From a virus (taxonomy: Duplodnaviria > Caudoviricetes), in the IMG/VR virus record IMGVR_UViG_3300046710_000261, positions 91,949-155,948 of that record: DNA of 64,000 nucleotides. One strand, given 5' to 3'. The notes beneath the pieces are model-generated. The model saw only the letters and a list, made by a program, of their open reading frames with translations, did not search any database and was not told the DNA's origin. A program made the translations under genes and the position numbers. Below, in pieces: positions 5,552 to 40,745 of the stretch; position 1 is the first letter of the stretch; every line of letters starts with the position of its first letter.

Positions 5552-6307
5552 ATGCGCTTACATGTGGGAGAGTTCAAAAAAATTCTCAAAAAAGCAACAG
5601 TGAATTTTGCTTTTGAAAGTGTTCAAATTAACTTTAAGAAAAATTCAGTAAAGAGTGGAATGATAGCGAAGGCAAATGATGTCATATCTATCATTAATAT
5701 TCCGAGCAATGATGCCCTTATTGAAATGGATACAGTCCAGGATATATCTCTTAATTTCAATGACCCCAATACAAATGTTCTGCCTTATCTAAATGTATAT
5801 GATGATGGGGATGTAATTAATGTTGAAACATCTTTGGAAAAAATGGTTCTATCTATGGACGCACAGAAGGTTAATATTCACTTCTGCCCATCAGAGCTTG
5901 TTACAATATTCACAAGTGATACCATACGTTCTGATGTAAAATGTTTTCATGAAATGAAATTAGATGATGTTTTCATCAGAAACTTTCTAAAGATCAAGAA
6001 AATAGGAGCAACATTCGGGAAAGTTTATTTCGGGGTTGATAATAACATTTTATATATGGAGACTACGGACCAGAAAAATACTTATGCAAATTCTTTGAGG
6101 GTGAATTTAGTTCCTCTCAAGATGGAAAATTTGGCTTTATTCTTCCAATATAAAGATTTGGTAAATGTTTTCTCTGTTATCGGGGAAGAGTATGCTGATT
6201 TTGTTCTTAGTTTGTCATGGACTAAATCTCAAGATTTAGGAATGATTTCATTCATTAAAACGGATAGTAGCGAAAAATATTATCTTTTATCAAAATTAGA
6301 TCAATAG
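5552..6307 (+). CDS. gp45: Sliding clamp (T4 gp45-like)
   Basis: ~250 aa beta-rich protein next to the clamp loader; C-terminal KYYLLS; call rests mainly on context. Confidence 0.65.
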   Translation: MRLHVGEFKKILKKATVNFAFESVQINFKKNSVKSGMIAKANDVISIINIPSNDALIEMDTVQDISLNFNDPNTNVLPYLNVYDDGDVINVETSLEKMVLSMDAQKVNIHFCPSELVTIFTSDTIRSDVKCFHEMKLDDVFIRNFLKIKKIGATFGKVYFGVDNNILYMETTDQKNTYANSLRVNLVPLKMENLALFFQYKDLVNVFSVIGEEYADFVLSLSWTKSQDLGMISFIKTDSSEKYYLLSKLDQ

Positions 6308-6310: not shown

Positions 6311-6340
6311 GTTTACAATTTGAAATGAATATGTTATAAT
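6311..6340 (+). promoter_or_regulatory. Promoter of Ubl gene
   Basis: TTTACA-17-TATAAT with extended TG. Confidence 0.7.
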
Positions 6341-6394
6341 TATTTCATAATCGTAAAACGATAAAGTTGCAAAATCCAAATTTGGAGGTTAATT

Positions 6395-6670
6395 ATGTCA
6401 GAGAGAGACGAAAGAGAAGTATGGGCAAGAGAAGAAAGTCCCAGAAACCTTGAGGGATTGGGAACCTTTGCGTTAGTCAATGGAGCACAGATTCCTTTGA
6501 CCGCAGGTGCCAGCTTCAAGGATACTTGTCTCCAGCTTTCCCGTGATGCGGGTTTCGGAAAGTTCCGTGTTTATCTAAACGGTTCAGAGATTACCCCATC
6601 CCAGGCACCCGAAACATTGAATGAGGGTGACAAAATGGAGATAAGAGCTTTTGACGTTGCTGGTAGATAA
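6395..6670 (+). CDS. Ubiquitin-like (beta-grasp, ThiS/MoaD-like) protein
   Basis: 91 aa; FRVYLNG...LNEGDKMEI...VAG-R end resembles ThiS/MoaD/SAMP C-terminal half; adjacent to E1 and JAB genes. Confidence 0.75.
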   Translation: MSERDEREVWAREESPRNLEGLGTFALVNGAQIPLTAGASFKDTCLQLSRDAGFGKFRVYLNGSEITPSQAPETLNEGDKMEIRAFDVAGR

Positions 6671-6713
6671 AAGCTGTCAAATTTTCGAAAATTTGTAAAC
6701 GCCAGCGTTGCTT

Positions 6714-6749
6714 GAGGAAGAAAGAGAAATTTTTCTTCCTCTTTTTTTA
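6714..6749 (+). terminator. Intrinsic terminator after Ubl
   Basis: GAGGAAGAAAGA-GAAA-TTTTTCTTCCTC followed by T-run. Confidence 0.7.
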
Positions 6750-6751
6750 TG

Positions 6752-6780
6752 TTTACATATTGATGTTTTTATGTTATAAT
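6752..6780 (+). promoter_or_regulatory. Promoter of E2-E2-E1-JAB operon
   Basis: TTTACA...TGTTATAAT. Confidence 0.65.
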
Positions 6781-6826
6781 ATAAGTAGAATTGTATTGTC
6801 TATTTTTCAATATAGGAGAGAAAAAC

Positions 6827-7780
6827 ATGGCAGAAAAAAATCTTGATGATCTGAAATCGGAAATGACCAATTGCCTCAATGTTGTAGATATTGAGAAGAT
6901 CAAATTGGATAAAGTGACAATGAGAGTTGGAAACAAGATCGTTCAGCTTGCCGTTGTCGGTGATGCTTCTTCCACATCTGTTGATCAGGAAATCAGAAAA
7001 GAATATAGCGAAAAACTAACCAAGAAACTTGCTCAAATTGGAGATATAATCAATAACAAGATGAGTGAAGTTACGGCCATGGTCAGTCAGATCAAAAGTG
7101 AATATGATCGAAAAGAAAAAATCATAAATGACAGAATGAGAAATATGTCTCCCATGCCTGATGTAAATTTAGATATGGCAAGAAAGGGAATGTATGTTTT
7201 CAAGGGAGATAGTGGAGAAGTTTGCTATCTTATCAGGGGAAAATATCGTCCTCTTATGATCGACCAGAAGCCCCTTAAACCTGTCCAGGCCAAAAAACTT
7301 GAAGCAGATATTTTCATTATGTTCAATGTAAAAGATGGAAAAAACATATCAATGGTGTCTACCAGAGATATAAACACTCTTGACTATTTTGATCATTATC
7401 ACCAAGCAAAACCCGATTGTTGGGGGAAATGGATGTGGCCGAAAGATTTTAAAACTCCTTATGATCTGTTTTCTATTGCTAGAACAGCAGAAGGTGTTTT
7501 GGAAAATATCAATACTGGTTCTATAGCAAATAGAAATCCAAGGATATATCCAAAGATTGATGTTCTGAGAAAATACATTATTGACACTGATGAATTGAAA
7601 TCTGAATTGGATGGCATGAAAAAGGGAAAGAAGAAATCCTGGATGGAAATGGATGAATTGGAATTGGAAAGACTTGCTGAAGGAAGAATGCCGGAACCAG
7701 AAGTGGCCCAGCCCCTACCAGGAGAAGAATTAAGACCTCAGAGACGAGAAGGCACGGAAACTTGGGATACAGGAAGGTAA
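6827..7780 (+). CDS. Putative prokaryotic E2-like protein with N-terminal coiled coil (paralog 1)
   Basis: FDHYHQAKPDCWG (His...Cys spacing reminiscent of E2 HPN...C) and LENINTGS; lies between Ubl and E1. Confidence 0.55.
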   Translation: MAEKNLDDLKSEMTNCLNVVDIEKIKLDKVTMRVGNKIVQLAVVGDASSTSVDQEIRKEYSEKLTKKLAQIGDIINNKMSEVTAMVSQIKSEYDRKEKIINDRMRNMSPMPDVNLDMARKGMYVFKGDSGEVCYLIRGKYRPLMIDQKPLKPVQAKKLEADIFIMFNVKDGKNISMVSTRDINTLDYFDHYHQAKPDCWGKWMWPKDFKTPYDLFSIARTAEGVLENINTGSIANRNPRIYPKIDVLRKYIIDTDELKSELDGMKKGKKKSWMEMDELELERLAEGRMPEPEVAQPLPGEELRPQRREGTETWDTGR

Positions 7781-7786
7781 ACCAAT

Positions 7787-8533
7787 ATGGCATTCATATG
7801 GCAATCAAGCGATTTGAAGGTAGACTTTGAAGAATATAAAAAAAGGTGTGTTCAAACTATGAAAGCAACAGAACCCAAACCCGTTGACCCGAAATATTTC
7901 AAGAGATGGATGGAAGAAATGACTGTCATGGTTGATCAAATACGGAAAGAATATGAGAGAAAAGAAAAATCATTATATAACAAAATGAAAAATACTGCTC
8001 CCATGCCTGATGTAGATTTTGATTATGCCAGAAGGGGAATGACAGTATTCAATGGGAAAAATGGAAGAGTATGTTATTTGATAAAGGGAGAATATCGCCC
8101 CAAAATGGTTGATAATGCGTTTATTTCTTCTATTCAGGCGAAAAAAATGAGGCATGATATTTATTTTTTGGTTGAAATGGTAAAAAGCAAGATATACAGC
8201 ATTTCAACCAGAAGAATAAAAGACCTTGCTTTTTTTGACCACTATCATCAAGCACATCCTGATTGTTGGGGTAGTTATCGGTGGCCAGAAGAAATTAATT
8301 CCCCTGAAGAATTATTTCATATAATAATAAATGCAGAGACTGTCTTGGAAAATATCAATACACATTCTATTGCTCGCCGTGACCCAAAAGATTTACCAGA
8401 GATTGATGTTTTGAAAAAGAAATATTTGAGAAAAACACTAATAAACAAAAGGATTGTGAAAAACAAATCAGCATGGTATAGCAGAAGCAGTTCAAGCGAA
8501 TATGATGAATATGGTGATGGAGATGACTATTAA
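7787..8533 (+). CDS. Putative prokaryotic E2-like protein (paralog 2)
   Basis: Shares PMPDV, CYLI.G.YRP, FDHYHQAHPDCWG and LENINT.SIA.R.P with the upstream gene. Confidence 0.55.
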   Translation: MAFIWQSSDLKVDFEEYKKRCVQTMKATEPKPVDPKYFKRWMEEMTVMVDQIRKEYERKEKSLYNKMKNTAPMPDVDFDYARRGMTVFNGKNGRVCYLIKGEYRPKMVDNAFISSIQAKKMRHDIYFLVEMVKSKIYSISTRRIKDLAFFDHYHQAHPDCWGSYRWPEEINSPEELFHIIINAETVLENINTHSIARRDPKDLPEIDVLKKKYLRKTLINKRIVKNKSAWYSRSSSSEYDEYGDGDDY

Positions 8534-8551
8534 AAGAAAGGAGAATGAAAA

Positions 8552-9139
8552 ATGACAATGTTGTATGATAGGCAAAAGGCTTTACAGTTGAGAACCCCAT
8601 CTATTACCGTTGTAGGATGCGGTGGTATTGGATTTTGGGTTGGAAAATTTTGCGCCATGGCCGGGATAGAGACAATCCATTTATTCGACCCTGATACAAT
8701 TGAAGATCATAATAGAAACCGATTGGATTTGACCGAAAAAGCAATCGGTGTAAATAAAGCACAAGTTCTCAAAGACCTTATCGTTGAATTGAGGCCCGAA
8801 GTGTCTTGCTATGCAATGCCTTTCAAATATCAGGAACATCTGGCCAAAAAAACCGATTGGGTTATTGATTGCACCGATTTGTCAAAGTCCCAAGAAGAAA
8901 ATTTGAAGATAGCCAAAAAATTCGGAAGCAAATATGTAAAAGCGGGTTATGATGGAGAACATATCTCTATCAATAACAATTTGGCAGAATGGGGTGTTGC
9001 CGAAGATGGATATACAGTAATTCCGTCTTGGGTTGTTCCTGCTGTCATTGTCGCCGCGCTGACCGTAGCAAAAATTATGAAGTATGACAAAGAAGAAATT
9101 TCAACAACAATCCAAAGATTGTTTTCGTTAAAACATTAG
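8552..9139 (+). CDS. ThiF/MoeB/E1-family adenylyltransferase
   Basis: YDRQ, VVGCGGIG, FDPDTIEDHNRNR, GVNKA, VIDCTD. Confidence 0.92.
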   Translation: MTMLYDRQKALQLRTPSITVVGCGGIGFWVGKFCAMAGIETIHLFDPDTIEDHNRNRLDLTEKAIGVNKAQVLKDLIVELRPEVSCYAMPFKYQEHLAKKTDWVIDCTDLSKSQEENLKIAKKFGSKYVKAGYDGEHISINNNLAEWGVAEDGYTVIPSWVVPAVIVAALTVAKIMKYDKEEISTTIQRLFSLKH

Positions 9140-9151
9140 AAGGGGGATGCA

Positions 9152-11083
9152 ATGGGTGATCAGATGCCGATAAAGAAAGAGGTATTCGCGGGTATAAAAG
9201 AACTGGGAGAGAAAGAACCTAATACTTGGGTTTATTTGATCGGTGATGGTAAGACGGTCAGCTCTTTCAAAAAACTAACAGAATTTTCTGCTGTTCCAGC
9301 AGGGAATAAAATCATGGGAAAAATGCTGGCCGGCAGGGCAAACACCACAAAGGAAATAGAGTTGAAAAATTCTGAAAAGAAAGATGAAATCAGTCCTTCA
9401 GCCCCAAAAGAAGAAGTTAGAACATATACTGCCCATAGAGCAGGATTTCAGACATTTAAGGGGGGAAAATTGGCAAGCGAAGCAGATTCGTGGGAAGTCA
9501 AGCTGGATTGTGTAACTTCTTGTAGCAAAGCACCATCGGAAAAGGAAGTCAAACTTCAGCCTATTGTCAAAATGAAAATTGATTCCCTGATGAGTAAATA
9601 TAAAAATCAGGAATGGCTTGCTTATTATGTTGGGCCAAAAGACCAATATATTGTCAACGATTTGGTAATTCCAGAGCAAAAGGCATCTTCTGCCCATGTA
9701 GGAGAGGTTGAATATTCCGTTCCAGAAGGTCAATGCGTTGTTGGAGTAATTCATTCCCATCACAGCATGTTTAAGGATTTTTCAGGAACAGATGATGCCT
9801 GGATTAATCAAAACCACAATATCAGTACAGTTGTTACTCATACGGGAAGCAAGACCCGTTGCAGAGTAAAAACTCCTTGTGGTTCATTGATAATTGTTCC
9901 AGGTAAACTGAAGATGCTTTACAATGTTGAATTTGACGAAACTGAATTTATCAAACTCGCAGAAGAGAAAATCAATCCACCAACTACAGTATATAGTCAA
10001 CCAGCACATGGGGTTTACGGACCTGAAATGTATGGCGACTATGACGCTAACTTTTTTCGGAACGGGGGGAGTGAAGAAGGACAAAAGTCTTCCACAACCT
10101 CCCCCACATCTGACGAAAAAACAACTGAAGAAGTGGAAAAAGAGACAAAGAAGAGTGATGAGACAACAGAAAAATTGGAAATGAACTGTCTCCATTACAT
10201 GGATAATAAAGGATGCTCAAATAACAAGATTACAGGGCCATATTGCACCTATTTCAATGGCTGTCCTCAATTCGAAAATAAGAATGGTGAGGTAGTAGAT
10301 GAACAATCGAAGAAATGCTCTGATTATTACACAGCAGCACAATCATCTACAAAACCTCACGGGTGCCACAATAGAAATGTCACGGGTGTTGAATGTATAG
10401 GAAGAGGAAAGTGTGGAGTTTTCAGTTATAAATTCACACCACCTTCGCCCACTCCTACTCTCGTCTCTGGCAATTCTGCAAAATTGTGTTATTATTTCTC
10501 AAAAGGCGATTGCCGCCACAATAAAGTAATGTCGAAGAAATGTTTGGGATGGTCTGCATGCGGAACGAACTTTTCCCCCAACAGAAAAATAGCGCAAGGA
10601 AATGGTAGTGGAAGTGATGATGAATCCATTACCTGCAAACATTATTTTGTTACAAATGAAAGTCCAGCAGGAAGATGCCGTAACCAAAAGGTATCGGGTT
10701 TATTCTGCATAGGAAAAGATGATTGTAAATCCTATGAAAAACTTGGACCAATTGTTCATATTCCAGTTGCGAATAAAGATGAATGGAATACAAACACACC
10801 AACATCTTCTATATCCGCAAAGAGAAACAAATATGAAGTAACATACAAAGGTATAGGAAAAGATGCCAAGGAAAACACATTTATCATTGATGGGGAAACA
10901 GAAGAGATAGCAAAAGGTCAATTCTCTAAAATCTTTATTCCCAAAGATTATGAATTTGTGAGCATAAAAATAATGGAAGATGCCCCCGCATCTATCAAGC
11001 CCACTGTTCCTGTAGTAGAATCGAAAGTAACAGAAAGTGGAATACAACCGCAACCAATACAGGAGTTCCCAGTAGTAGAATAA
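9152..11083 (+). CDS. JAB/MPN+ metallopeptidase with C-terminal Cys-rich repeats
   Basis: EWLAY...GVIHSHH...FSGTD (JAMM E-xn-HxH-x7-S-xx-D). Confidence 0.88.
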   Translation: MGDQMPIKKEVFAGIKELGEKEPNTWVYLIGDGKTVSSFKKLTEFSAVPAGNKIMGKMLAGRANTTKEIELKNSEKKDEISPSAPKEEVRTYTAHRAGFQTFKGGKLASEADSWEVKLDCVTSCSKAPSEKEVKLQPIVKMKIDSLMSKYKNQEWLAYYVGPKDQYIVNDLVIPEQKASSAHVGEVEYSVPEGQCVVGVIHSHHSMFKDFSGTDDAWINQNHNISTVVTHTGSKTRCRVKTPCGSLIIVPGKLKMLYNVEFDETEFIKLAEEKINPPTTVYSQPAHGVYGPEMYGDYDANFFRNGGSEEGQKSSTTSPTSDEKTTEEVEKETKKSDETTEKLEMNCLHYMDNKGCSNNKITGPYCTYFNGCPQFENKNGEVVDEQSKKCSDYYTAAQSSTKPHGCHNRNVTGVECIGRGKCGVFSYKFTPPSPTPTLVSGNSAKLCYYFSKGDCRHNKVMSKKCLGWSACGTNFSPNRKIAQGNGSGSDDESITCKHYFVTNESPAGRCRNQKVSGLFCIGKDDCKSYEKLGPIVHIPVANKDEWNTNTPTSSISAKRNKYEVTYKGIGKDAKENTFIIDGETEEIAKGQFSKIFIPKDYEFVSIKIMEDAPASIKPTVPVVESKVTESGIQPQPIQEFPVVE

Positions 11084-11114
11084 GAAGTCCATCTTATCTA
11101 AATCATAACTCCAA

Positions 11115-11155
11115 TAAGACCATCTTAGAGATTTTTCTTTAAGATGGTTTTTTTA
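11115..11155 (+). terminator. Intrinsic terminator closing the Ubl locus
   Basis: ACCATCTTAGAGA...TCTTTAAGATGGT plus T-run. Confidence 0.7.
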
Positions 11156-25912: not shown

Positions 25913-26494
25913 ATGAAAACAATTATAAGTTGCCATCTTGACAGCGTGTTTACTTCTCCAATGGCAGATGTAAAGAACGGAATACATACAGGATGCTGTG
26001 ATAATCTCAGCGGTGTATTGGCAGTTGCACAACTTATACAGAATGATGATATTTGTATTGAATTTACGAACGGGGAAGAGACAAATTTGGAAGGTGCGAA
26101 ATGGGTTGCCAATCATTATTCTGCGAGTGAATGGTTTATCATTGTGGTTGATACTACTGATAGGTCAACTCATTGGAAAAATATACAGTTCACGGTAGAA
26201 AATCCAGGTCATGTTGATATAAAACATATCAAGAGGGCATTGAGACCTTTCTATGGAAAATATAAATTGAGGGAGTTTGGTGTCGAAAGCGAAGCATGGC
26301 TTTATAAGAGAGAAGGATTTTCCTGTGTAGAGATTGATGTCCCTGTTGCACTTGGATTGCACAATCTTCATAATAAAGCAAAAGTGTCAGACATTATAAT
26401 TTGTTCAGAGGCAATGAAAGTGATTGCTGATTATATGAAAGAGAAAACACGGGAACAAATTTTACCTGTTGAACATACAGAAGAAAGACGATAA
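25913..26494 (+). CDS. M28-like metallopeptidase
   Basis: SCHLDSV, GCCDNLSGV, FTNGEE. Confidence 0.7.
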   Translation: MKTIISCHLDSVFTSPMADVKNGIHTGCCDNLSGVLAVAQLIQNDDICIEFTNGEETNLEGAKWVANHYSASEWFIIVVDTTDRSTHWKNIQFTVENPGHVDIKHIKRALRPFYGKYKLREFGVESEAWLYKREGFSCVEIDVPVALGLHNLHNKAKVSDIIICSEAMKVIADYMKEKTREQILPVEHTEERR

Positions 26495-26495
26495 A

Positions 26496-26951
26496 ATGGA
26501 AGAAGATATTATCAGAGAATTTCAAGGCAAATACAGATGGTTGTCAAATTTCTGGTTTTTTGATGGGACAACGGTGGAACATTTATATCAAGCTGCGAAA
26601 GCAATCAATAAGAAAGATGAAGAATATATTCTTTCTTCTTCTAATCCTGGTGTTGCAAAACGTCGAGCGAAAATGATACACCTGCGCGAAGAGTGGGAAG
26701 ATATAAAAGTTGGTATTATGCACAATCTTCTTCAAAGAAAATTCAAAAATCCTATATTGAGAAAGAACCTTCTGGCAACAGGAAATAAAATTCTTCAAGA
26801 AGGGAACAGATGGTATGATACTTTTTGGGGTATAGATTTGAGAACTGGGCTGGGAGAAAATAACTTGGGTAAACTTATTATGCAAGTAAGAGATGAAATC
26901 CGTCAAGAAGGAATACCCAAAATTGATAAGGAATTATTTAAAATTGACTGA
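26496..26951 (+). CDS. NADAR (YbiA/RibX) family protein
   Basis: WLSNF, TVEHLYQAAK, LLATG, DTFWG, GENNLGKLIMQVR. Confidence 0.92.
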   Translation: MEEDIIREFQGKYRWLSNFWFFDGTTVEHLYQAAKAINKKDEEYILSSSNPGVAKRRAKMIHLREEWEDIKVGIMHNLLQRKFKNPILRKNLLATGNKILQEGNRWYDTFWGIDLRTGLGENNLGKLIMQVRDEIRQEGIPKIDKELFKID

Positions 26952-29324: not shown

Positions 29325-29527
29325 TGTATCTATTTATGTTCGTTCCTTGCTTTTGTAAACTACTGATATTAAAATATTTTTTTGATTGTAGCATTTTGTG
29401 TTCTCCTTTATATAGGATTTTCTGCTTATATTATAACACAAATTGAACGAATTGTAAATATAAAATGGTGTCCTTGAAGAAAGAATTTTACCTATACAAT
29501 TGCTTCCGAATATGGTATAATAATAAT

Positions 29528-32182
29528 ATGTTTCGGAATATATTTTATAATTCAAGAAATAGTCAAATACATTTATGGGAACAATTTTCTGGAAAGGATG
29601 AGTATACATGTATAGATTGGACGCCATATGTGTTTGTGCCCTCTGTCGATGGAGAAATCAGGAGCATCGAAGGCCAGTCTGTTCAGAAAAAAATTTTCAA
29701 ATCTTACACAGAATATTATGAATATCTGAAAAAGAATAGTGATGATGAAAATGTTTTTGAAAATAATGTAAAACCAGAAATTCAATTTCTTGCTGAAAGA
29801 TATAGTGGAATTGCTGACGATAAGATGGAAGTTCCCAAACTTACCGTTTATTTTTTGGATATAGAAAACTATAGCGAGACGGGATTTTCTAAACCTTCAG
29901 AAGCAAATGCTCCTATAGTTTCTATTTCTGTTCATAATGCATTGAAAAACAGGACAACCGTTTTTGGTTTGAAGGAATATAATGGTAAATGGAAAGGCCA
30001 GGAATTTTTGAATTATATTCATGCTAGAGACGAAAAGACACTTTTGAGAATGTTTTTTATTTTCATGAATAGGTATCCTTGTGATGTAATTTCAGGTTGG
30101 AATGTTCTCGGTTATGATATTTTATATCTGATAAATAGGACGAAAAAATTCTTTGGGGATGACACAAATATATATAAGGCAATGTCTCCTATCAATACTG
30201 TTAGGATATGGGAAGAGGAAAAAGGTCCTGCGAAATTGGATATAGCGGGTGTTACCGTATTAGATTATATGGATTTGTATAAACGATATTCTCCGAAGAA
30301 ACTGGAAAGATATTCTCTTGATTTTGTAAGTAAACATGAATTAGAAAAAGGTAAAGTTGATTATTCGGAATATAAAGATTTGAATGAATTTTACAATAAA
30401 AATCATGATTTGTTCATCGAATATAATGTAATGGATACAATCAGGCCGAAACAACTGGAAGAAAAACTTGGCTATATAAAACTGGTTCAATCATTATCTT
30501 TGTTGTGCAAAGTACCGATGAAATTTTATGTGGCGCAGACCCAATTGATTGAAGGTCTTTTTATTGCATATTTCAGAAGAAATGGTTTGTGCGCACCGCA
30601 CTTTTCTGGCGGAAAACAGGAGACATTTGAAGCGGCTTATGTCAAAGAACCGCAAAGTGGAATGTATGATTGGATTTGTGATTTTGATATTACATCATCT
30701 TATCCAACCCATATTATAGCACTCAATATGTCAAAGGAAACTTATTTTGGGCGCATTACAGGGATACCAGAAGACAAGATTATTTTTTATGTGGTGAGCA
30801 GAAATTTTCCATCATTTACCATAACCAAATTGAACGGTGAGCAGGATATATTTGAAGGACAAAAACTATCTACCTTCAATGCTCTTTTAGAAAGACGGGC
30901 ATTGGCTGTTGCCCCAAATGGTTCTGTATTCAGAACCAAACCAGAGGGTGTTCTCGCAAAATTGGAAAGAAGCATTTTCGATATAAGAAAAGACACAAAG
31001 AAGAGAATGATAAAAGTAAAACAGTCTCTTCCAGAATTGCGTGATGTAAATCTCAATAACGCGAAGGAAAGAATAGAGCAATTAAACTCAATTCAAAATT
31101 CTTTGAAAATTGTAATGAATGCTCAATTTGGAATTACAGCAGTTCCATATTCGAGATACTTTAACGTCAACCTATCGGAAGCGATTGCTTCTTGTGGTAG
31201 AATTACTGTTCGATATGGAGAAAAATTTATCAATGAATTTTTCCAGCAAGGGATATATGCAAAAAATAAGGAAATGAAAGATGTTCTTGGGCAGATGGGC
31301 ATAACAGAATATCCTGAAATAAAAAATGATATGGTGGCTTATGGAGATACGGATTCACTGTATGTCAAAATGGGTTATTTTATGGATGTTGTTGGCGGAA
31401 AAATTTGGCAAGAATTGGATGAAAAAAAGAAAATTCATTATTTGATTAGAGTATCCCGTATTGTTTATGAATATATAAATGATAGAGAATATAAGGAAAT
31501 ACAGCGGGGATTTTATAATTCAGCAGTTACGGATTTCAAGATAACATTCAAACAGGAAATGGTTGCCAAGACAGCATTATTTGTAAAGAAGAAAAAATAT
31601 TCCATGTGGATTGTTGATGAAGAAGGTGCTACTGTAGATGAAATAAAAACAAAAGGATTGGAAATTATTCGTTCAGAAACACCAGAAGCCATTCGCCCTA
31701 AACTCAAAGAAATAATGGAAATGATTTTGAAAAGAAAATCAGATAATGAGATAACAGAAAAGATAAATACATATAAAGCCGAGTTGATGAATTGTATTCC
31801 CGAAGAAATCTCAATGAATATTGGGATAAGAGGAATGAGTGATTATATCAAAGGAAATGTGGTTTTAAAAGGTGCCCCATGGCATGTAAAAGGTGTTCAT
31901 GCTTATCGGTACTTATTGAAACATCTCAAGCTGACAGATAAATATGAAGAGTTAGTTGATGGTAATAAGACAAAGGTAGTTTATTTGAAACCTAATGTTT
32001 TTGGATTTGAAGAAGTTTCTTTTTTACGTTGGCCGAAAGAATTTGACAGAATTATTCAAATAGATTATAATAAGCAAATAGAAAACAATTTTACTGAAAA
32101 GATAAAAATGCTTCTTGCTCCAATGAATAAAACAAATTTATTGAATGATTCGGGATATAGGTTAAGTCTCTTCTTTAAATAA
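29528..32182 (+). CDS. gp43: Family B DNA polymerase (T4 gp43-like)
   Basis: ExoI DIE, GWN..YD, DITSSYP, KIVMNAQFG, YGDTDS, KKKY. Confidence 0.96.
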   Translation: MFRNIFYNSRNSQIHLWEQFSGKDEYTCIDWTPYVFVPSVDGEIRSIEGQSVQKKIFKSYTEYYEYLKKNSDDENVFENNVKPEIQFLAERYSGIADDKMEVPKLTVYFLDIENYSETGFSKPSEANAPIVSISVHNALKNRTTVFGLKEYNGKWKGQEFLNYIHARDEKTLLRMFFIFMNRYPCDVISGWNVLGYDILYLINRTKKFFGDDTNIYKAMSPINTVRIWEEEKGPAKLDIAGVTVLDYMDLYKRYSPKKLERYSLDFVSKHELEKGKVDYSEYKDLNEFYNKNHDLFIEYNVMDTIRPKQLEEKLGYIKLVQSLSLLCKVPMKFYVAQTQLIEGLFIAYFRRNGLCAPHFSGGKQETFEAAYVKEPQSGMYDWICDFDITSSYPTHIIALNMSKETYFGRITGIPEDKIIFYVVSRNFPSFTITKLNGEQDIFEGQKLSTFNALLERRALAVAPNGSVFRTKPEGVLAKLERSIFDIRKDTKKRMIKVKQSLPELRDVNLNNAKERIEQLNSIQNSLKIVMNAQFGITAVPYSRYFNVNLSEAIASCGRITVRYGEKFINEFFQQGIYAKNKEMKDVLGQMGITEYPEIKNDMVAYGDTDSLYVKMGYFMDVVGGKIWQELDEKKKIHYLIRVSRIVYEYINDREYKEIQRGFYNSAVTDFKITFKQEMVAKTALFVKKKKYSMWIVDEEGATVDEIKTKGLEIIRSETPEAIRPKLKEIMEMILKRKSDNEITEKINTYKAELMNCIPEEISMNIGIRGMSDYIKGNVVLKGAPWHVKGVHAYRYLLKHLKLTDKYEELVDGNKTKVVYLKPNVFGFEEVSFLRWPKEFDRIIQIDYNKQIENNFTEKIKMLLAPMNKTNLLNDSGYRLSLFFK

Positions 32183-32469: not shown

Positions 32470-32543
32470 AGGGGGATCGTTCAACGGCAGGACGGTAGGC
32501 TCTGAACTTACAGATCAAGGTTCGATTCCTTGTCCCCCTGCCA
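32470..32543 (+). tRNA. tRNA-Gln(CTG)
   Basis: Cloverleaf, loop CTCTGAA, encoded CCA. Confidence 0.9.
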
Positions 32544-32549
32544 CGATAA

Positions 32550-32624
32550 GCGGGTATAACCTAGTGGTTAGGTGTCACGTTGCCAATGTGATTTAGGTGG
32601 GTTCGATTCCCATTACCCGCTCCA
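32550..32624 (+). tRNA. tRNA-Gly(GCC)
   Basis: Loop TTGCCAA, CCA. Confidence 0.9.
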
Positions 32625-32917
32625 ATCTTCATTACTTCAAATCATCAGAAGTCCTTAGTATTACAATACAATAATAAATTTTTTGAATCCTTTTGCAGAT
32701 ACTTTCATCTAAATAGATGTATGGAGAAGAGGTGTAAACTATAGGATGTGAAAATCCGAGAGAGGGAATGTAAATGGAGAAAAATTCATTTTTGGAAGAA
32801 CGGAAAAAGAAAATGTGGAGTCGCATACCTTTTATGTTTAATTTCGGAACTATTATTTTTAATGGAGAAGAGTTCCACAGAAGAAAATCAAAGTATACTT
32901 TAAAAGGAGGAAAATTC

Positions 32918-33298
32918 ATGTATATTGTAAAAGACACACAGCCCGATGTAGCATTTCAACTATCTTTCCAGGTATTGGATGCTGAAGGAAGCCCTGTTAT
33001 TGATCCAGCAGTTTTGAGTGCATTGAAAGTTGAGGTCGTTTCAGATAATCCATCATCAGTAGCAGTTATTGCTGACCCTGATGGAAACCCACTGAAAGGA
33101 ACAGTAACATTTGGTTCACCCAACACAGACGGAACGCCATCGAATGCCAATATTAATATAACTGTTTCCGAAACAGATGGAACAGTCATTGGTGTATTTG
33201 GTGCACAGTTCACAGTAACCGCAGGTGATCCTGCTGCTATTGCCAGTGGAACAATCGTATTTGCTGGTCTATCAGAAACATCTACTGCTAAAAAATAA
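32918..33298 (+). CDS. Ig-like/beta-rich putative virion protein
   Basis: AGGAGG RBS; V/T/G/D-rich beta pattern. Confidence 0.5.
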   Translation: MYIVKDTQPDVAFQLSFQVLDAEGSPVIDPAVLSALKVEVVSDNPSSVAVIADPDGNPLKGTVTFGSPNTDGTPSNANINITVSETDGTVIGVFGAQFTVTAGDPAAIASGTIVFAGLSETSTAKK

Positions 33299-33369
33299 AT
33301 TAGCACAGATGTAACAACCCACCAAACCCTCATATTGGAAACAGGATGGGGGTTTTTCTTTTCCATAAA

Positions 33370-33377
33370 TATAAATA
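33370..33377 (+). promoter_or_regulatory. T4-type late promoter
   Basis: TATAAATA upstream of the IPT-repeat gene. Confidence 0.55.
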
Positions 33378-33418
33378 GATATAGAAACGCATCTATTAAT
33401 AATTATGGGAGAAAATAA

Positions 33419-34975
33419 ATGGCATACACAATAAGAAATTTAGCAGACGATATTATTCATAATAATATTAGGAATATACCAGCGGAATGGAGAACAATTG
33501 CTGATGATATTATACATAACAGACTTTGGGAAGTCCCAACTTCTCGTACTTTCAACAGGGATGAGTTTTTGAATGAACTTTTACATAATTATATTTCTGA
33601 AATTTCTCCTGATCCTGTTAATCCACCAGGGCCGACAATTACAAGTTTAGATCCCAACAACATAGAGGTTAATAGTCCTGCCTTTCCTCTTACAGTTAAC
33701 GGCACAAATTTTGTCGATAATTCTGTAGTAAAATGGGGTGGTTCATCAAGGGATACTCTATATGTTGGTTCTACACAACTTATAGCAGAAATTCTTGAAA
33801 CTGATGTTGCCGATCCTGAAACGGTTGCTGTTACTGTATTTACTCCAACTCCTGGCGGCGGAACATCAAATGCGCAAACATTTACGATCAATGAACCAAT
33901 ACCATATATTTTAAGTTTAACACCAAATTCTGCCGAAGTAGGTGATGATGCTTTTACTTTGGAAGTAAGTGGAACATTGTTTGATCAAGATACTGTAGTG
34001 AGATGGGAAGGTTCAGATAGAGATACAACTTTTGTCAGTTATACAAGTTTAACTGCTGAAATAAGTGCTTCTGATATTGCTGATGGTGGAGAATTTGATG
34101 TAACAGTATTCAATCCCTCTCCTAGTGGTGGATTATCAAATCCTGAAGTATTCACGGTAAATAATCCTGTTCCAACACTTATAGGTATGAGTCCATCAAG
34201 CAGGATAGCAGGAAGCGTAGCATTTACTTTGACTATTTCTGGAACAAATTTTGAAAATAATTCAACAGTACAATTGGATGGTTCTGATAGAGATACAACC
34301 TTTGTTAGCGGGGCATCACTAACTGCTGAAATAAGTGCTTCTGACATTACAGATGAAGGAACAGTAAATGTTACTGTATTCAATCCAGCTCCAGGTGGCG
34401 GTGAATCAGATGCTTTGACATTTACAGTAAATAATCCAGCTCCTGCATTATCAAATATAAGTCCTTCAGGTGCTATAGAAGGTGGTATTTCATTTACCTT
34501 AACTGTTTGTGGATCAAACTTTGTTGATGATTCAGTAGTAAAATGGGCATCGGTTTCAAAGACTACAACATATGTTAGTCCCACAGAGTTGACAGCAGCA
34601 ATTCCCGACACTAATATTGCTCTTGCCAATAATTATGCTGTAACAGTGTTTAACTCAAGCCCAGGTGGAGGAACCTCTGGTTCTTTGATATTTGAGGTTG
34701 ATCATCCGCTTCCTGAATTAGATAGTATAACACCATCTACAACGGGAGCAAGTGGATCATCATTTACATTGACAGCCAATGGAACAAATTTTGTCAACAA
34801 TTCTGTTGTAAAGTGGGGTGGTTCGAACAGAACAACAACTTATGTTAGTTCTATTAAACTTACAGCATCAATTCTTGAGGCTGATGTTGCCGATCCTGGA
34901 ACTGTTGCCGTTACTGTATTTACCCCAACTCCAGGTGGTGGAACATCAAATGATCAAACATTTACAATTACTTAA
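33419..34975 (+). CDS. IPT/TIG Ig-like repeat protein (five repeats)
   Basis: Repeats of P.I.S..P......F.LTV.G.NF...SVVKW....T.YVS...LTA.I...D......VTVF.P.PGGG.S. Confidence 0.88.
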   Translation: MAYTIRNLADDIIHNNIRNIPAEWRTIADDIIHNRLWEVPTSRTFNRDEFLNELLHNYISEISPDPVNPPGPTITSLDPNNIEVNSPAFPLTVNGTNFVDNSVVKWGGSSRDTLYVGSTQLIAEILETDVADPETVAVTVFTPTPGGGTSNAQTFTINEPIPYILSLTPNSAEVGDDAFTLEVSGTLFDQDTVVRWEGSDRDTTFVSYTSLTAEISASDIADGGEFDVTVFNPSPSGGLSNPEVFTVNNPVPTLIGMSPSSRIAGSVAFTLTISGTNFENNSTVQLDGSDRDTTFVSGASLTAEISASDITDEGTVNVTVFNPAPGGGESDALTFTVNNPAPALSNISPSGAIEGGISFTLTVCGSNFVDDSVVKWASVSKTTTYVSPTELTAAIPDTNIALANNYAVTVFNSSPGGGTSGSLIFEVDHPLPELDSITPSTTGASGSSFTLTANGTNFVNNSVVKWGGSNRTTTYVSSIKLTASILEADVADPGTVAVTVFTPTPGGGTSNDQTFTIT

Positions 34976-34990
34976 TATAGGAGAAATATT

Positions 34991-35395
34991 ATGCCAGTAA
35001 CGGTTAGTAATTCAGTAAAAAGTGGGGTGCTGGTTTCGTTTACCAACCCCTCTTCAGGCACATATGAAATTCAATATAATATAGTTAGATATTCTGGAAT
35101 GTATCTGTATGTGAATTATACAAAAGGTAGCGAATCGAGTGTTGATTTCTTTTTCAAAGCATCTGATAGTTTATTTGCTGCTTCCGTTCCGCCTTCTGGC
35201 GCATACTATGTTATTAAAACAAATTCTTCAAGTGTAGCAAGTCAATATTTCATTAGGTTGACTTCAACGGGCAAATATGTAATGCCTGTTCCAAGTCCCG
35301 AATCGGCAGATTTTCTTACTGCGGAAATAGTATTTAATGGGCCAGATGATGGAACTATAAATGTGTTTGGAAATTATGACGATAGTTATGCATAA
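34991..35395 (+). CDS. Putative virion structural protein
   Basis: AGGAG RBS; beta-rich. Confidence 0.5.
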   Translation: MPVTVSNSVKSGVLVSFTNPSSGTYEIQYNIVRYSGMYLYVNYTKGSESSVDFFFKASDSLFAASVPPSGAYYVIKTNSSSVASQYFIRLTSTGKYVMPVPSPESADFLTAEIVFNGPDDGTINVFGNYDDSYA

Positions 35396-35810
35396 TAGAG
35401 GAAGATGTGAATGTTTATATGATACCTCTCAAAAGTCTTGATGGGTCGGGAGTTAATCCAACGGAATTGGCATTAATGATCGGAATATTGATTGAAGAAC
35501 CAGAAGACAAAAAAGAATGTTTACATTTATAAATAGATATGGTATAATTGAAAATGGATGAAATAATCATTGACGAAAAAACAAGGAAGATTTTAGAAGA
35601 ACTTACGGGAATAATTATGGAAAGTCGAGCGAGAATACATACAATTTGCACCACCCTCTTGAATTATAATAATTTAGAGGGAGAGTTTTCTCTATCATCC
35701 AATTGTTCTGCACTGATTAGAAAACCGAAAAATACACCAGAACAAACAGCAGATACAGGCAAACAAGAGGGGGAAAAAGGATAAACCAATTTCCCATATA
35801 ATAGATGATG

Positions 35811-35848
35811 AAAAACCCCTCTTGGAGAAATCAAAGTGGGGTTTTTTG
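35811..35848 (+). terminator. Intrinsic terminator
   Basis: AAAAACCCC...GGGGTTTTTT. Confidence 0.55.
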
Positions 35849-35927
35849 TTTCACAAGTTTAAAATTGTCTTTATTTGAGTACCATGGGTAAGGGAAAGCA
35901 GTAATAAGAAGGTAAGTTATTGATTTT

Positions 35928-35984
35928 ATTATGAAAGATTTTTCTTGACATGGCTTCAGTTTTTTGATATAATAAAGACTGAAA
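35928..35984 (+). promoter_or_regulatory. Sigma70-type promoter heading the ncRNA/tRNA region
   Basis: TTGACA-17-TATAAT; ~55-nt near-identical copy at ~40860. Confidence 0.8.
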
Positions 35985-35989
35985 ATGAG

Positions 35990-36860
35990 TAATTGATCTT
36001 TGACAACTGAATATTAATCTTGGAATTACTGATAGAAAGCGGAAATTATAAAAACCGAGCATGGGGTTTTTTCGCAATGCGATCAGGACAAAGGACGCGG
36101 TGTTTCCAAGATACCCTAAATCCCGCGTCAGCGAATTTATAACGATATATCGGTAATGGACATCCTTTGTGGTTTGATTCCGTCCCTGTGTGGTCTGCCC
36201 ATTATCGGGAATTTTAAGGGTTGTCGCTCGGAATAGATGGCGTGACACAATTGGAGCAATTAAATTCCATCCCTAAAAATAAAATTGTGGGGGGTAGGTG
36301 GGTAGCATTAATAACCATGGATAAATTAATGTGAGAGGCCGATTAGAGCAAAAAGGGTGAGAGATAATCCCTTCCTCCCAGACCATTATGATAAACCGAA
36401 AAGGATAGATACAAATAGAATCAATGTAACTCAGTTTGGTAGAGGGTTCAAGTAATTGAACAGGTCGGGAGTTCAAATCTCCCCGATGGTTCTAAATGTA
36501 GAACAAGAGTGAAATCCCCGAGTAGGTACGAATTTGGGTGTCTCTTCGGAGACTGTTAGACATATTTGTGAATGCATGCTAAAATCTAAATTGTGGTGTA
36601 GCGGTAACATACGGGCATTGCAACCCGTGATGCTCGTTCGATTCGAGCAAATTTAGAGACACAAATATGGAGCAATTCTGTTGGAGGCATTTGCCACCAA
36701 ACAGGATACCCGAAAAATTTAAGAGTAGACAAGCGGAATACGGGTTCGATTCCCGTATGTGAAAATTTGGGATAGATGTTGGTAAGTGGCCACTTACTAA
36801 TAGAACAACGTGAAATCCCCTTAATAAGCATGGATAGGATGGATTCTAAACGCTTGATGT
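35990..36860 (+). ncRNA. Candidate large structured ncRNA (GOLLD/ROOL-like context)
   Basis: No credible + strand ORF; several long-range complementary pairs, cUUCGg tetraloop, two tRNA-like domains. Confidence 0.6.
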
Positions 36861-36864
36861 TTTT

Positions 36865-36939
36865 GCCGATGTAGTTCAACGGAAGAACAACTGTCTTGTA
36901 AGCAGTAAGTTGGGGGTTCGATTCCCTCCATCGGCTCCA
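36865..36939 (+). tRNA. tRNA-Thr(TGT)
   Basis: Loop CTTGTAA, CCA. Confidence 0.9.
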
Positions 36940-36944
36940 AGAGT

Positions 36945-37063
36945 TAGGGGAAAGTAAACAAGGTAGGAAGCGTGGCGGTTTTGCGCAAAACTTAGCTCGG
37001 CATTTCTTACTCTCCCGAAAGAGAGAGCGAACAGGGTTCAATTCCCGTTGCTTCTTTCCCTTA
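36945..37063 (+). ncRNA. Stem-closed small RNA with T-loop
   Basis: TAGGGGAAAG/CTTTCCCTTA closing stem; GGG-TTCAATT-CCC arm. Confidence 0.45.
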
Positions 37064-37073
37064 CAACATTTTT

Positions 37074-37147
37074 TCCGATGTAGTGAAATGGCATCACGAT
37101 TGGCTGTTAACCAATTTTTGGGGGTTCGAGTCCCTCCATCGGAGCCA
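37074..37147 (+). tRNA. tRNA-Asn(GTT)
   Basis: Loop CTGTTAA, CCA. Confidence 0.9.
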
Positions 37148-37155
37148 AAAATTTT

Positions 37156-37239
37156 GGGGAAGTCGGACAGCGTGGTGAGTCCCAGTGGCCGTAACCCACT
37201 TGCGAAAGCATAGAGGTTCGATTCCTCTCTTCCTCACCA
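37156..37239 (+). tRNA. tRNA-Tyr(GTA), C33
   Basis: Loop CCGTAAC, variable arm TGC-GAAA-GCA, CCA. Confidence 0.82.
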
Positions 37240-37326
37240 GATATGAAAAATTTGAGGGTTGCTCAGAATATGAGATGTGCTCAAAGTCCATAGAGAGACA
37301 GACAACTCTCAAATAAAATTGAATTT

Positions 37327-37401
37327 GGGGGCGTGATGAAACTGGGATCATAATGCGCTTGCACCGCATTTTTGAGGGTTCAAATCCCTCCGCCTCCACC
37401 A
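37327..37401 (+). tRNA. tRNA-Ala(TGC)
   Basis: Loop CTTGCAC, G3:U70, CCA. Confidence 0.9.
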
Positions 37402-37438
37402 GAAAGGAAACCGATGTTAAAATTTCTTAAAAGATAAT

Positions 37439-37514
37439 GGTGCTATAGTTTAACCGGAAAAATACTTCCCTGTCACGGAAGAAGATGCGGGTTCGAATCC
37501 CGTTGGCATCGCCA
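37439..37514 (+). tRNA. tRNA-Asp(GTC)
   Basis: Loop CTGTCAC, G73, CCA. Confidence 0.88.
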
Positions 37515-37728
37515 TAAAGAAATAAGATTGATGAGAAAGGGTGTAAAATGAGAAAACCAACAAAAGCAGAATTGATAAGACATATTCATCATATTTGTAC
37601 GATAACAGCAAACCCTAATACTATCAGTGGTGTCAAAGATATGGTAACAGCAATGAGATTGATTGATACTGTTTGGATGGATAGTTTTCGCATTTTGGAA
37701 GAGTGTGGTGAAATAAAGGAAAATAAAG

Positions 37729-38013
37729 ATGATTGATGAAGATAGCATTTATAGTCAATGCCCGAATTGCGCTAAAACATTAGAAGAAATTCATGAACCT
37801 TATGGTTCTTATGGTAAGATTCATGAATCATTAGAAAAGGTTCATTGTCTGAATTGTAAATCTGTTTTTACCAAAGAGTATATTAAAGGATATTGGGAGG
37901 GATACCAAAGACAGCAACAGATAATTGATCAGATGGAAGATGCTTTTAAAAAATCTGCAAATGAATTTATTGCAAAATGCGATAGAGAGATTAGGAAAGC
38001 AATAGAAGGATAA
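37729..38013 (+). CDS. Zinc-ribbon hypothetical protein
   Basis: CPNC...CLNC. Confidence 0.55.
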   Translation: MIDEDSIYSQCPNCAKTLEEIHEPYGSYGKIHESLEKVHCLNCKSVFTKEYIKGYWEGYQRQQQIIDQMEDAFKKSANEFIAKCDREIRKAIEG

Positions 38014-38020
38014 AAAATTT

Positions 38021-38098
38021 CGGGGTGTGCGGGTAAACTGGCAGCCCACTCGGCCTGGGACCGAGTATATGAAGGTTCAATTCCTTTCACCCCGACCA
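38021..38098 (+). tRNA. tRNA-Pro(TGG), C33
   Basis: Loop CCTGGGA, C1-G72, CCA. Confidence 0.85.
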
Positions 38099-38107
38099 AA
38101 AATATTT

Positions 38108-38181
38108 GGCCCCATCTACTAATGGTAGGTAGCAAGACCTTCAATCTTGAAACGCCGGTTCAAATCCGACTGGGGCTACCA
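38108..38181 (+). tRNA. tRNA-Glu(TTC), C33
   Basis: Stem CAAGA/TCTTG, loop CCTTCAA, CCA. Confidence 0.8.
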
Positions 38182-38188
38182 AAAATTT

Positions 38189-38263
38189 GGTCCCATAGCA
38201 CAATTGGGAGTGCAATCGCCTGATGAGCGATGGACTTCAGTTCAAATCTGGATGGGACTACCA
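38189..38263 (+). tRNA. tRNA-Ile(GAT)
   Basis: Loop CTGATGA (G37), CCA. Confidence 0.85.
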
Positions 38264-38266
38264 AAA

Positions 38267-38366
38267 TTTCCATCTTGCGGTATGTCAGTACCGAGTAATA
38301 GAGATAGTATCGGGGCCTAGCTGAACACAGGCTTAACACCGTAGGGTACTCTATCCAAGATGGAAA
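38267..38366 (+). ncRNA. Stem-closed ~100-nt element between tRNAs
   Basis: TTTCCATCTTG/CAAGATGGAAA 11-bp closing stem. Confidence 0.4.
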
Positions 38367-38373
38367 CACCTTT

Positions 38374-38451
38374 GGGATCATAGCAAATGTTGGCATTGCA
38401 ACAGGCTTTTAACCTGTGAATACGTGGGTTCGATTCCCGCTGGTCCCACCA
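38374..38451 (+). tRNA. tRNA-Lys(TTT)
   Basis: Loop CTTTTAA, CCA. Confidence 0.88.
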
Positions 38452-38459
38452 AAAATTTT

Positions 38460-38533
38460 GGAGCATTAGTTTAATGGAAGAATCTTCGGTTCTCAGCCGA
38501 AAAGCATCAGTTCGATTCTGATATGCTCTACCA
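38460..38533 (+). tRNA. tRNA-Glu(CTC)
   Basis: Loop TTCTCAG, CCA. Confidence 0.85.
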
Positions 38534-39016
38534 AAGAGAAAATTATGAAATTAAATTTGAAGGTAAATGATAGGGTTGAAATAAAAAATACAGGAACCGA
38601 TATTGATGGTCATACAGGAAAGAATTTAGGAAAGGCAACCGAAAATATTATTGACTTTTATATAATTCTTCTTGATGAACCAATTCCTAATCATTTGGCT
38701 GTAATATTTCCTGAAGGCTGTTTGGTTCTATTATAGAAAGGAAAATGTATGATAGGTAAAATGGTAGTAGAAACTCCGAAGAAAAAGATGAAGAAGTCAA
38801 AGGATGAAAAAATTCGGGAAGCAATGGAAGCATTACAAAAGGCAATAGATATGGAAGAACCGCATATTCAAATTTCTCTTCCATGGTGTCCTGATGTTGA
38901 ACATGATCCGAAAGGAAAAGAACTTCTTCATGTTCATCTTAAAACCTTTATGAAAGAGTTCAAAGAATATTTCGGCTTGGAAAAAGTTGAAATAAAAATA
39001 CTTATATAAAAGTTTT

Positions 39017-39093
39017 GGCCGTGTACCCTAACTGGCAAAGGGAACTGCCTTAGAAGCAGTCTTTTGAGAGTTCGAATCTCTCCATGGCTACCA
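39017..39093 (+). tRNA. tRNA-Leu(TAG), short variable loop
   Basis: Loop CTTAGAA, CCA. Confidence 0.85.
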
Positions 39094-39100
39094 AATTTAT

Positions 39101-39176
39101 TGAGAGGTCGTTCAACTGGCAGGACATTCGGCTTTGACCCGAAAGGTTGGTGGTTCGATCCCACCCCTCTCAGCCA
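39101..39176 (+). tRNA. tRNA-Gln(TTG)
   Basis: Loop CTTTGAC, U1-A72, CCA. Confidence 0.9.
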
Positions 39177-39185
39177 GAAATTTCT

Positions 39186-39261
39186 GGGGCCATAGTGAAA
39201 TGGATTATCACAAAAGTCCTCTAAACTTTTTTTGAAGGTTCGAATCCTTCTGGCCCTACCA
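39186..39261 (+). tRNA. tRNA-Arg(TCT), C33
   Basis: Loop CCTCTAA, A20, CCA. Confidence 0.8.
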
Positions 39262-39268
39262 TATTTTT

Positions 39269-39343
39269 GCCCCTGTCGTTCAACGCATAGGATAATTCTC
39301 CCCTAAAGAATTGATGAGGGTTGGATTCCCTCCAGGGACACCA
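39269..39343 (+). tRNA. tRNA-Arg(CCT), C33, swapped elbow pair
   Basis: Loop CCCCTAA; D-loop GC, T-loop TTGGATT; CCA. Confidence 0.75.
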
Positions 39344-39414
39344 TTTTATATTTACAATTCGTTCAATTTGTGTTATAATACAAATAGAAAATCCTATATA
39401 AAGGAGAATACAAA

Positions 39415-39885: not shown

Positions 39886-40054
39886 AAAGGATAAAATCCA
39901 GGGAAAATTGCATAACCATAATAGATAGGCAAAATAAAAGAGAAATGTTTGTAAATATTTATGGTAGACAGCCAGAAGAATATTTTTCAGAATATGCCTA
40001 TAAAGAACCTGAAATTTGGTTTTGGGTTATGGATGATCTTGGAATGAAAAGATT

Positions 40055-40131
40055 GCCCCTGTAGTGAAACGGAATTATCACACTTCGCTACGGACGAAGC
40101 ATTGCGGGTTCGAATCCTGCCAGGGGTGCCA
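40055..40131 (+). tRNA. tRNA-Arg(ACG)
   Basis: Loop CTACGGA, CCA. Confidence 0.9.
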
Positions 40132-40142
40132 GAAAGGTTTAT

Positions 40143-40652: not shown

Positions 40653-40657
40653 TTTAT

Positions 40658-40736: not shown

Positions 40737-40745
40737 AGGAATTGT

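Follow-up and report, generated by a model that had tools for sequence, protein, structure and literature searches.

In bacteria, the conjugation of ubiquitin-like proteins (Ubls) has until now been reported as anti-phage immunity of the host, carried out by Cap2/Cap3 of the cyclic oligonucleotide-based antiphage signaling system (CBASS) and by the Bil and Bub pathways. Why, then, would a phage carry what looks like a set of such genes of its own? We addressed this question for a five-gene cassette in IMG/VR virus record IMGVR_UViG_3300046710_000261, using as our window the last 64 kb of this 155,948-bp record. The G+C content of the window is 33–40%. An initial annotation, made from the DNA sequence, described five co-oriented genes directly after a sliding clamp gene and bounded by promoters and terminators. 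It read them as a phage-borne Ubl conjugation pathway consisting of a Ubl, two paralogous E2-like proteins, a ThiF-type E1 and a JAMM peptidase. All five open reading frames (ORFs) are present as described, on the plus strand between positions 6395 and 11083. Our analysis supports the annotated pathway, and every component assignment held up. We conclude, with a probability of roughly 60%, that the cassette encodes a ubiquitin-like protein conjugation cascade that acts early in infection.

The proteins of the cassette

The first gene (6395–6670) encodes the candidate Ubl, a protein of 91 residues for which no match was found among sequence models. Its family comprises 369 clusters at E <= 0.01. 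An AlphaFold2 model built from 120 sequences (predicted local distance difference test [pLDDT] score of 80) has a ββ-α-ββ-β topology preceded by a disordered N-terminal tail. When this model was compared with known structures using Foldseek, it matched ThiS, ISG15, SUMO, ubiquitin and MoaD with probabilities of 0.9–1.0. Nearly all of the top 50 rows are Ubls, with template modeling (TM) scores by target of 0.5–0.62 and E values of only 0.02–0.07.

The C-terminal end of the protein is more strongly constrained. The motif [FY]D.AG is present in 119 of 120 homologs, 61 of which stop at the Gly, while 39 have one further residue and 19 have two to six. Ala89-Gly90 is invariant, and the window protein, which ends in FDVAG-R, has its Gly masked by one residue. 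The terminus is thus Ala-Gly, not Gly-Gly. Such a pattern is typical of Ubls in which the Gly is activated, after a peptidase has uncovered it if it was masked. Together, the predicted β-grasp fold and the conserved Ala-Gly bear out the annotation of this protein as a Ubl. We found no fused forms of the Ubl, which is weak evidence.

The fourth gene (8552–9139) encodes the candidate E1, a single ThiF-type adenylation domain of 195 residues. The annotation as a ThiF/E1 adenylase is confirmed by a match to Pfam ThiF (PF00899) at 6.8e-22, with 78.2 bits against a cut-off of 28.1 (76.9 bits in a whole-genome search). The protein also matches the Cap2-type E1-E2 models of PADLOC, down to 2e-15; its best NCBIfam matches are ThiF and MoeB models, and its matches in the PDB are Uba1, TcdA, MccB, ThiF, MoeB, UBA5 and Cap2. 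Among 57 orthologs of 192–259 residues, the adenylation residues G22-x-G-G-x-G, D46, N-R-N-R (54–57), K69 and D105-C-T-D108 are conserved. From knowledge of MoeB and ThiF, we take these to be the ATP loop, the ribose Asp, the Arg finger, the Lys and the DxxD motif. W147-G148, G153-Y154 and P158-S159 are also invariant. The E1 is without Zn-binding CxxC pairs, and no Cys after the DCTD motif is conserved in the 57 orthologs; the commonest Cys column (position 161) is occupied in 7 of them. In the Bub pathway, a Cys-less E1 with an invariant crossover-loop Tyr serves oxyester chemistry (PMC11601596). By analogy, Tyr154 may be the equivalent of this residue.

The second and third genes encode P1 (6827–7780; 317 residues) and P2 (7787–8533; 248 residues), which we refer to as carriers. 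P1 starts at an ATG at 6827 behind an AGGAGA ribosome-binding site; an alternative ORF of 329 residues begins with a TTG at 6791. As annotated, the two proteins are paralogs that share HYHQxxPDCWG, with 53% identity over 171 residues (E 1e-66). P1 consists of an N-terminal coiled-coil region, a UBC-like core containing H190-Y-H192...C198 and a tail ending in ETWDTGR. P2 retains H152-Y-H154...C160 and lacks about 60 residues at the N terminus as well as the Trp motif at the C-terminal end. No model in Pfam, PHROG, NCBIfam or PADLOC matches the carrier family. An exhaustive profile search recovered 235 representative clusters, 83 of them below 1e-30. When 126 relatives were aligned, the sole invariant column was Cys160 of P2 (C198 of P1), with F150, H152, Y153, H154, G162, L187, N191 and P200 (P2 numbering) nearly invariant.

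The initial annotation called the E2 assignment its weakest link, and here the evidence is structural. An AlphaFold2 model of P2 (pLDDT 86; core > 95) contains long N-terminal helices, a short helix, four strands (residues 85–143), a long loop with HYH and the Cys, and a helix at 174–187. In a search of 48,161 PDB chains that was independent of Foldseek, nearly all of the top 15 matches were E2 enzymes, with 111–122 residues aligned (covering 71–213) and Z scores of 5.6–6.3. Taken together with the rescoring described below, the UBC-fold matches span residues 69–214, with a root-mean-square deviation (rmsd) of 4.0–5.0 and Z scores of 5.6–6.6, a range in which (Z < 8) a match can reflect a common arrangement. 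BubB matched the model with Z 5.1 and an rmsd of 3.0 over 92 residues. Rescoring of Foldseek candidates yielded 42 chains at Z >= 5, nearly all of them UBC, UEV or RWD domains, and the nearest named ESM Atlas cluster was Prok-E2_D (TM 0.39–0.41). Judged from the secondary structure of the model rather than from superposition, the invariant Cys lies 17 residues past strand 4 and 14 ahead of helix 2. The catalytic Cys of UBE2D-type E2s has such a spacing between these elements. A UBC-like fold is therefore supported, although not proven, and the model places the invariant Cys at the position of the E2 active-site loop, in line with the annotated E2 role.

Other possibilities for the carriers did not hold. 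A lone weak PDB-profile match to IspF, over helix 2 and the next loop (E 0.004), was treated as chance because the confident model has UBC topology and IspF is not among the best structural matches. The Gly-Arg end of P1 was considered as a Ubl-like adenylation site, but Gly-Arg is not conserved; the conserved feature of the tail (P1, 7750–7780) is an acidic-Val-Trp motif, [DE][DE]D[VI]W[ST]x-COOH, found in 69 of 70 orthologs. Nor does motif similarity support this tail as a sliding-clamp-binding peptide, since D-V-W-x-x is unlike the LSLFFK at the end of the polymerase (29465–32182), a tail resembling clamp-binding peptides of the T4 type. Three small ORFs (26469–26951, 45514–45978 and 47097–47357) also have clamp-binding-like ends, K[DE]LF[KE]I[DE], which the carrier tail does not resemble either.

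The disordered N-terminal tail of the Ubl (6395–6460) contains [ED][ED]E[YV]W[D] in 118 of 120 homologs (E-V-W in the window protein). An acidic-hydrophobic-Trp motif is thus common to the Ubl N terminus and the carrier C terminus, in both cases within a disordered tail. Possibly, it is a shared docking peptide for E1 or JAB.

More distant relatives of the carriers are 350–600 residues long, with SH3-like/DUF4314 domains flanking the HYH...C core, and many end in G/A-W/F-x-V/I. Queries with single proteins and small alignments found no loci for these relatives in viral or genome collections, and no members of the Prok-E2_D family were found in 301 sampled genomes.

The last gene (9152–11083) encodes a JAB/JAMM metallopeptidase of 643 residues, with a core at approximately residues 110–265 and a C-terminal extension. 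The zinc-site residues of the JAMM motif, E...HxH-x7-S-xx-D, are intact, as the annotation had proposed: E154, H201, H203, S211 and D214 show at least 98% conservation across 53 orthologs. With Prok-JAB (PF14464), the score of the window protein is 22.6 bits against a 25-bit cut-off, and four orthologs exceed this cut-off (28.7, 27.6, 26.5 and 25.2 bits). It is the longest JAB of the set, the other orthologs having 211–574 residues, and its extension contains four 4-Cys repeats (residues 346–525; window 10187–10726). Other long orthologs (L036, L047, L080 and L086) contain CxxC...CxxC ribbons, one of which weakly matches a RanBP-type zinc ribbon (19.6 bits). In eukaryotes, NZF/RanBP fingers bind ubiquitin. 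By analogy, the 4-Cys and CxxC modules could be Ubl-binding.

Linkage, distribution and transcription

To ask whether these genes belong together, we examined the surroundings of the carrier gene wherever it was found: 7 loci in IMG/VR and 80 in metagenomes, about 90 in all, a count that includes some contigs present in two collections. Among loci with enough flanking sequence, the E1 gene was beside the carrier gene in 69 of 71, the Ubl gene in 66 of 68 and the JAB gene in 56 of 58, and the clamp gene was upstream in 47 of 48. The order is constant: clamp loader, clamp, Ubl, carrier, E1, JAB. Regarding synteny in other phages, which the annotation had singled out for attention, the cassette travels with the replication module in these related loci, which represent a clade of uncultured viruses. 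A pattern scan of 185,579 species genomes returned only 3 loci, each on a contig of a metagenome-assembled genome (MAG) with phage synteny. Given the fixed synteny and the restriction of the genome matches to these MAG contigs, the cassette is a vertically kept part of a phage lineage rather than a bacterial defence island. Among 50,697 deposited phage genomes, searched with both DNA and protein, there was no relative of the cassette or carrier and no DNA-level resemblance to the region, and a BFVD search gave no clear match. One ThiF match on a plasmid, pursued as a cassette lead, turned out to be a microcin C operon.

Tandem carriers are rare. They also occur in L088, a 1.3-kb metagenome contig (L088:1-1275) in which the end of a P1-type gene is followed by a shorter gene of the P2 type and an E1 gene (74% identity), and thus the duplication is common to at least one other phage. 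In a tree, P2 groups with the L088 copy, and P1 pairs as a sister with the lone carrier gene of L010; P1 is the ortholog of the single-copy carrier genes. In two loci, L030 (L030:4578-5882) and L089 (L089:4645-5843), a conserved gene of 364 residues follows the carrier in place of the E1 and JAB genes.

The annotated promoters and terminators could be located as promoter-like sites and terminator-like hairpins, all on the plus strand. A sigma-70-type promoter with an extended -10 element, TTTACA-17-TGTTATAAT (6312–6340; 11 of 12 consensus matches), precedes the Ubl gene, and a hairpin with a T-run follows it (6714–6741). A second, near-identical promoter, TTTACA-17-TG.TATAAT (6752–6780), precedes the enzyme genes, and a 16-pair hairpin with a T-run 3′ of JAB (11116–11151) closes the unit. 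This layout indicates a separate Ubl transcript and a single enzyme transcript. The exact word TTTACA-N17-TATAAT occurs 7 times in the window, compared to 0.04 expected, and therefore marks a real class of promoters in this phage; they are of the early type, matching host sigma-70. Promoters of this type would place expression of the cassette early in infection. The seven words are at 3408, 6312, 6752, 29458 (minus strand), 35520, 39351 and 49016; TG precedes the -10 element in most, and the copies at 29430–29458 (minus strand) and 39351–39379 are identical in all 29 bases.

The upstream neighbor, a gp45-like sliding clamp (5552–6307, plus strand), is conserved; we regard it as context, not as a demonstrated part of the system. 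With a clamp-loader subunit and a family-B polymerase, it belongs to a T4-type replication module in the window. The polymerase is 28–29% identical to polymerases of T4-like cyanophages. Elsewhere in the window, 34 tRNA genes covering nearly every amino acid are packed into a 15-kb stretch (32470–47435), in addition to one odd tRNA-like call (36586–36657).

A proposed cascade and its alternatives

The following scheme builds on the predicted folds and motifs, on conservation and synteny, on the restriction to phages and on the context of the promoters; its chemical steps, its purpose and the assumption that the targets are proteins are all inferred. The Ubl would be produced from its own early promoter, and the JAMM peptidase would trim the masked Ala-Gly end, removing one Arg in the window protein. 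The minimal, homodimer-type E1 would then adenylate the terminal Gly with ATP. Since this E1 has no catalytic Cys, the UBC-like carrier (P1 or P2) would take up the activated Ubl on its invariant Cys, either straight from the adenylate or by way of Tyr154, which is likewise invariant in the E1. The carrier would then transfer the Ubl to nucleophiles of target proteins, most likely lysines. As no E3 is present, the N-terminal coiled-coil part of the carrier may select the targets. The peptidase may also reverse the modification: half of the Ubls need no trimming, yet the JAB is kept, and it therefore probably also removes conjugates. The purpose could be host takeover, self-regulation or counter-defence.

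Several points weigh against such a cascade. By its sequence, the E1 is without the catalytic Cys on which thioester cascades depend. The E2 models of Pfam (E <= 1), NCBIfam and PADLOC match none of the 126 carrier relatives, and the carriers have HYH[QG] where canonical E2s have HPN. The match of the carrier model to UBC folds is of moderate strength (Z ~6), and Foldseek returned nothing for it at E <= 0.001 in the PDB, only weak rows. L030 and L089 contain Ubl and carrier genes with no E1 or JAB within 5 kb downstream; either the enzymes have been relocated in these genomes or the system is being lost. Ubl, E1 and JAB also occur as triads in sulfur-carrier pathways. Lastly, as the record is estimated to be ~70% complete, the absence of partner genes from it is not proof.

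A more specific version of the proposed cascade, to which we give slightly less than even odds, is a hybrid chemistry in which carriers of a new HYH...C, UBC-fold type are combined with a Cys-less minimal E1, so that an adenylate or Tyr ester is converted to a Cys thioester. The system would tag host proteins or the replisome early in infection and form a stable part of the early replication block in a clade of large T4-like phages.

We considered three other explanations. One, which we consider unlikely although it fares best of the three, is that ligation is independent of an E2 or that the target is not a protein. The E1 alone would ligate the Ubl, as proposed for archaeal SAMPs and TtuB, and the UBC-like proteins would be non-catalytic adaptors, UEV-like binders or the main substrates. 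Such a role is compatible with the absence of a catalytic Cys in the E1, with the presence among the carrier matches of UEV and RWD domains (non-catalytic members of the same superfold) and with the long coiled-coil and tail regions of the carrier, which suit scaffolding. However, the only invariant residue among 126 relatives is a Cys in the E2 active-site loop, which indicates catalysis over binding. This Cys is flanked by a near-invariant HYH and Gly, and both paralogs retain it.

Somewhat less probable still is that the genes serve purely to mimic and counter host defences, with the JAB stripping host conjugates or a decoy Ubl flooding the host enzymes of Bil, Bub or type II CBASS. Those Ubl cascades that are known from bacteria are anti-phage (PMC11601596), early-type promoters drive the cassette, and the C-terminal region of the JAB is highly variable in length (proteins of 211–643 residues), as for a host-facing part. 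Yet a decoy or deconjugase needs no complete, tightly linked set of Ubl, E1 and carrier. A fixed site in the replication module across about 90 loci contrasts with the usual patchy distribution of anti-defence genes, and the components are not closely similar to Bil, Bub or Cap2/Cap3 proteins.

The third explanation is a sulfur carrier, in which a host persulfide donor would turn the E1-adenylated Ubl into a thiocarboxylate that delivers sulfur, for example for tRNA thiolation, a modified base or a cofactor; the JAB would trim the Ubl, in the manner of QbsD and Mec+, and P1 or P2 would relay persulfide through the Cys. The best fold matches of the Ubl include ThiS and MoaD, ThiF and MoeB models are the best NCBIfam matches of the E1, which resembles ThiF-type enzymes in having no catalytic Cys, the phage has 34 tRNAs, Ubl-E1-JAB triads are established in sulfur pathways (Iyer et al., 2006, PMC1779556), and a host could provide the sulfur enzymes that an incomplete record does not contain. 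We nevertheless find this explanation improbable, as the annotated absence of thiamine and molybdopterin genes from the window extends to the whole 156-kb record, which also contains no sulfur-relay genes (PP-loop ATPase or thiolase, rhodanese, cysteine desulfurase), the conserved cassette includes no sulfur-accepting enzyme, the carrier gene, which is strictly linked to the other three components, encodes a UBC-like fold that sulfur pathways do not use, and the Ubl ends in Ala-Gly rather than the Gly-Gly of ThiS and MoaD.

Comparison with known systems

If the cascade is active, phages themselves employ Ubl tagging, and ubiquitin-like signaling would be a viral offensive or regulatory tool in bacteria, beyond host defence. 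The full gene set is viral: it accompanies the replication genes in about 90 loci, its proteins fall into hundreds of clusters, and it is all but missing from cellular genomes. Full-text literature searches found no paper describing the cassette. An active cascade would constitute a fourth prokaryotic Ubl cascade architecture, in which an E1 without a catalytic Cys hands over to carriers that use a Cys and form a new E2 family. Its small, separate parts (91, 195 and about 285 residues) would lend themselves to studying E1-to-E2 transfer without an E1 thioester.

The cassette resembles Bil (BilABCD) in having separate Ubl, E2, JAB and E1 genes, no E3, a Cys nucleophile in the E2 and a Ubl whose Gly can be masked and trimmed. 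The E1 of Bil has an IAD-AAD-CYS architecture (PMC11601596), whereas the E1 described here is a single domain of 195 residues without a catalytic Cys and is not of the Bil type. In addition, the carrier matches no known E2 family model. Finally, Bil is a host-encoded defence, while the genes described here belong to a phage and stay in synteny with its replication genes.

With Bub (6E/DUF6527), the cassette shares a minimal E1 of the homodimer type, which is Cys-less and has an invariant Tyr past its adenylation core, a diverged UBC fold and a JAB with a predicted role in trimming the Ubl. However, Bub E2s have an invariant Ser and use oxyester chemistry (PMC11601596), and the invariant residue of our carriers is a Cys. 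In Bub, the proteins occur as fusions (Ubl-E2, JAB-E1 or E2-E1), invariably together with the DUF6527 protein BubE, whereas the genes here are separate; the only match to DUF6527/BubE in the genome was below threshold (15.5 bits) and concerns an HNH-like ORF at a distance of 60 kb.

Type II CBASS likewise brings together an E1 adenylation domain, an E2 and a JAB, in Cap2/Cap3, and our E1 matches Cap2-type models. Cap2, however, is an E2-E1 fusion that conjugates the C terminus of a CD-NTase, with no free Ubl, while the phage has a dedicated Ubl. No CD-NTase models were among the PADLOC matches of the five cassette proteins.

The Prok-E2_D/PRTRC cassettes, which consist of an E2-like protein, ThiF and JAB, are similarly carried by mobile genetic elements, and there are weak NCBIfam matches of the JAB to PRTRC_A (E 0.013) and of the E1 to PRTRC_ThiF. 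None of the Pfam Prok-E2 models recognises any protein of the carrier family; these similarities are leads and not evidence of membership.

The only earlier phage-borne association of a β-grasp protein with a JAB is TAPI/TAPK of lambda and T1 (Iyer et al., 2006, PMC1779556), in which the β-grasp protein is also Gly-terminated. TAPI/TAPK, a tail-assembly pair encoded in the tail module, comes with no E1 or E2, whereas the cassette described here adds activating and carrying machinery and is located in the early replication region. Within the Ubl-E1-E2-JAB kind of system, what is new is thus the E2-like sequence family and its viral home.

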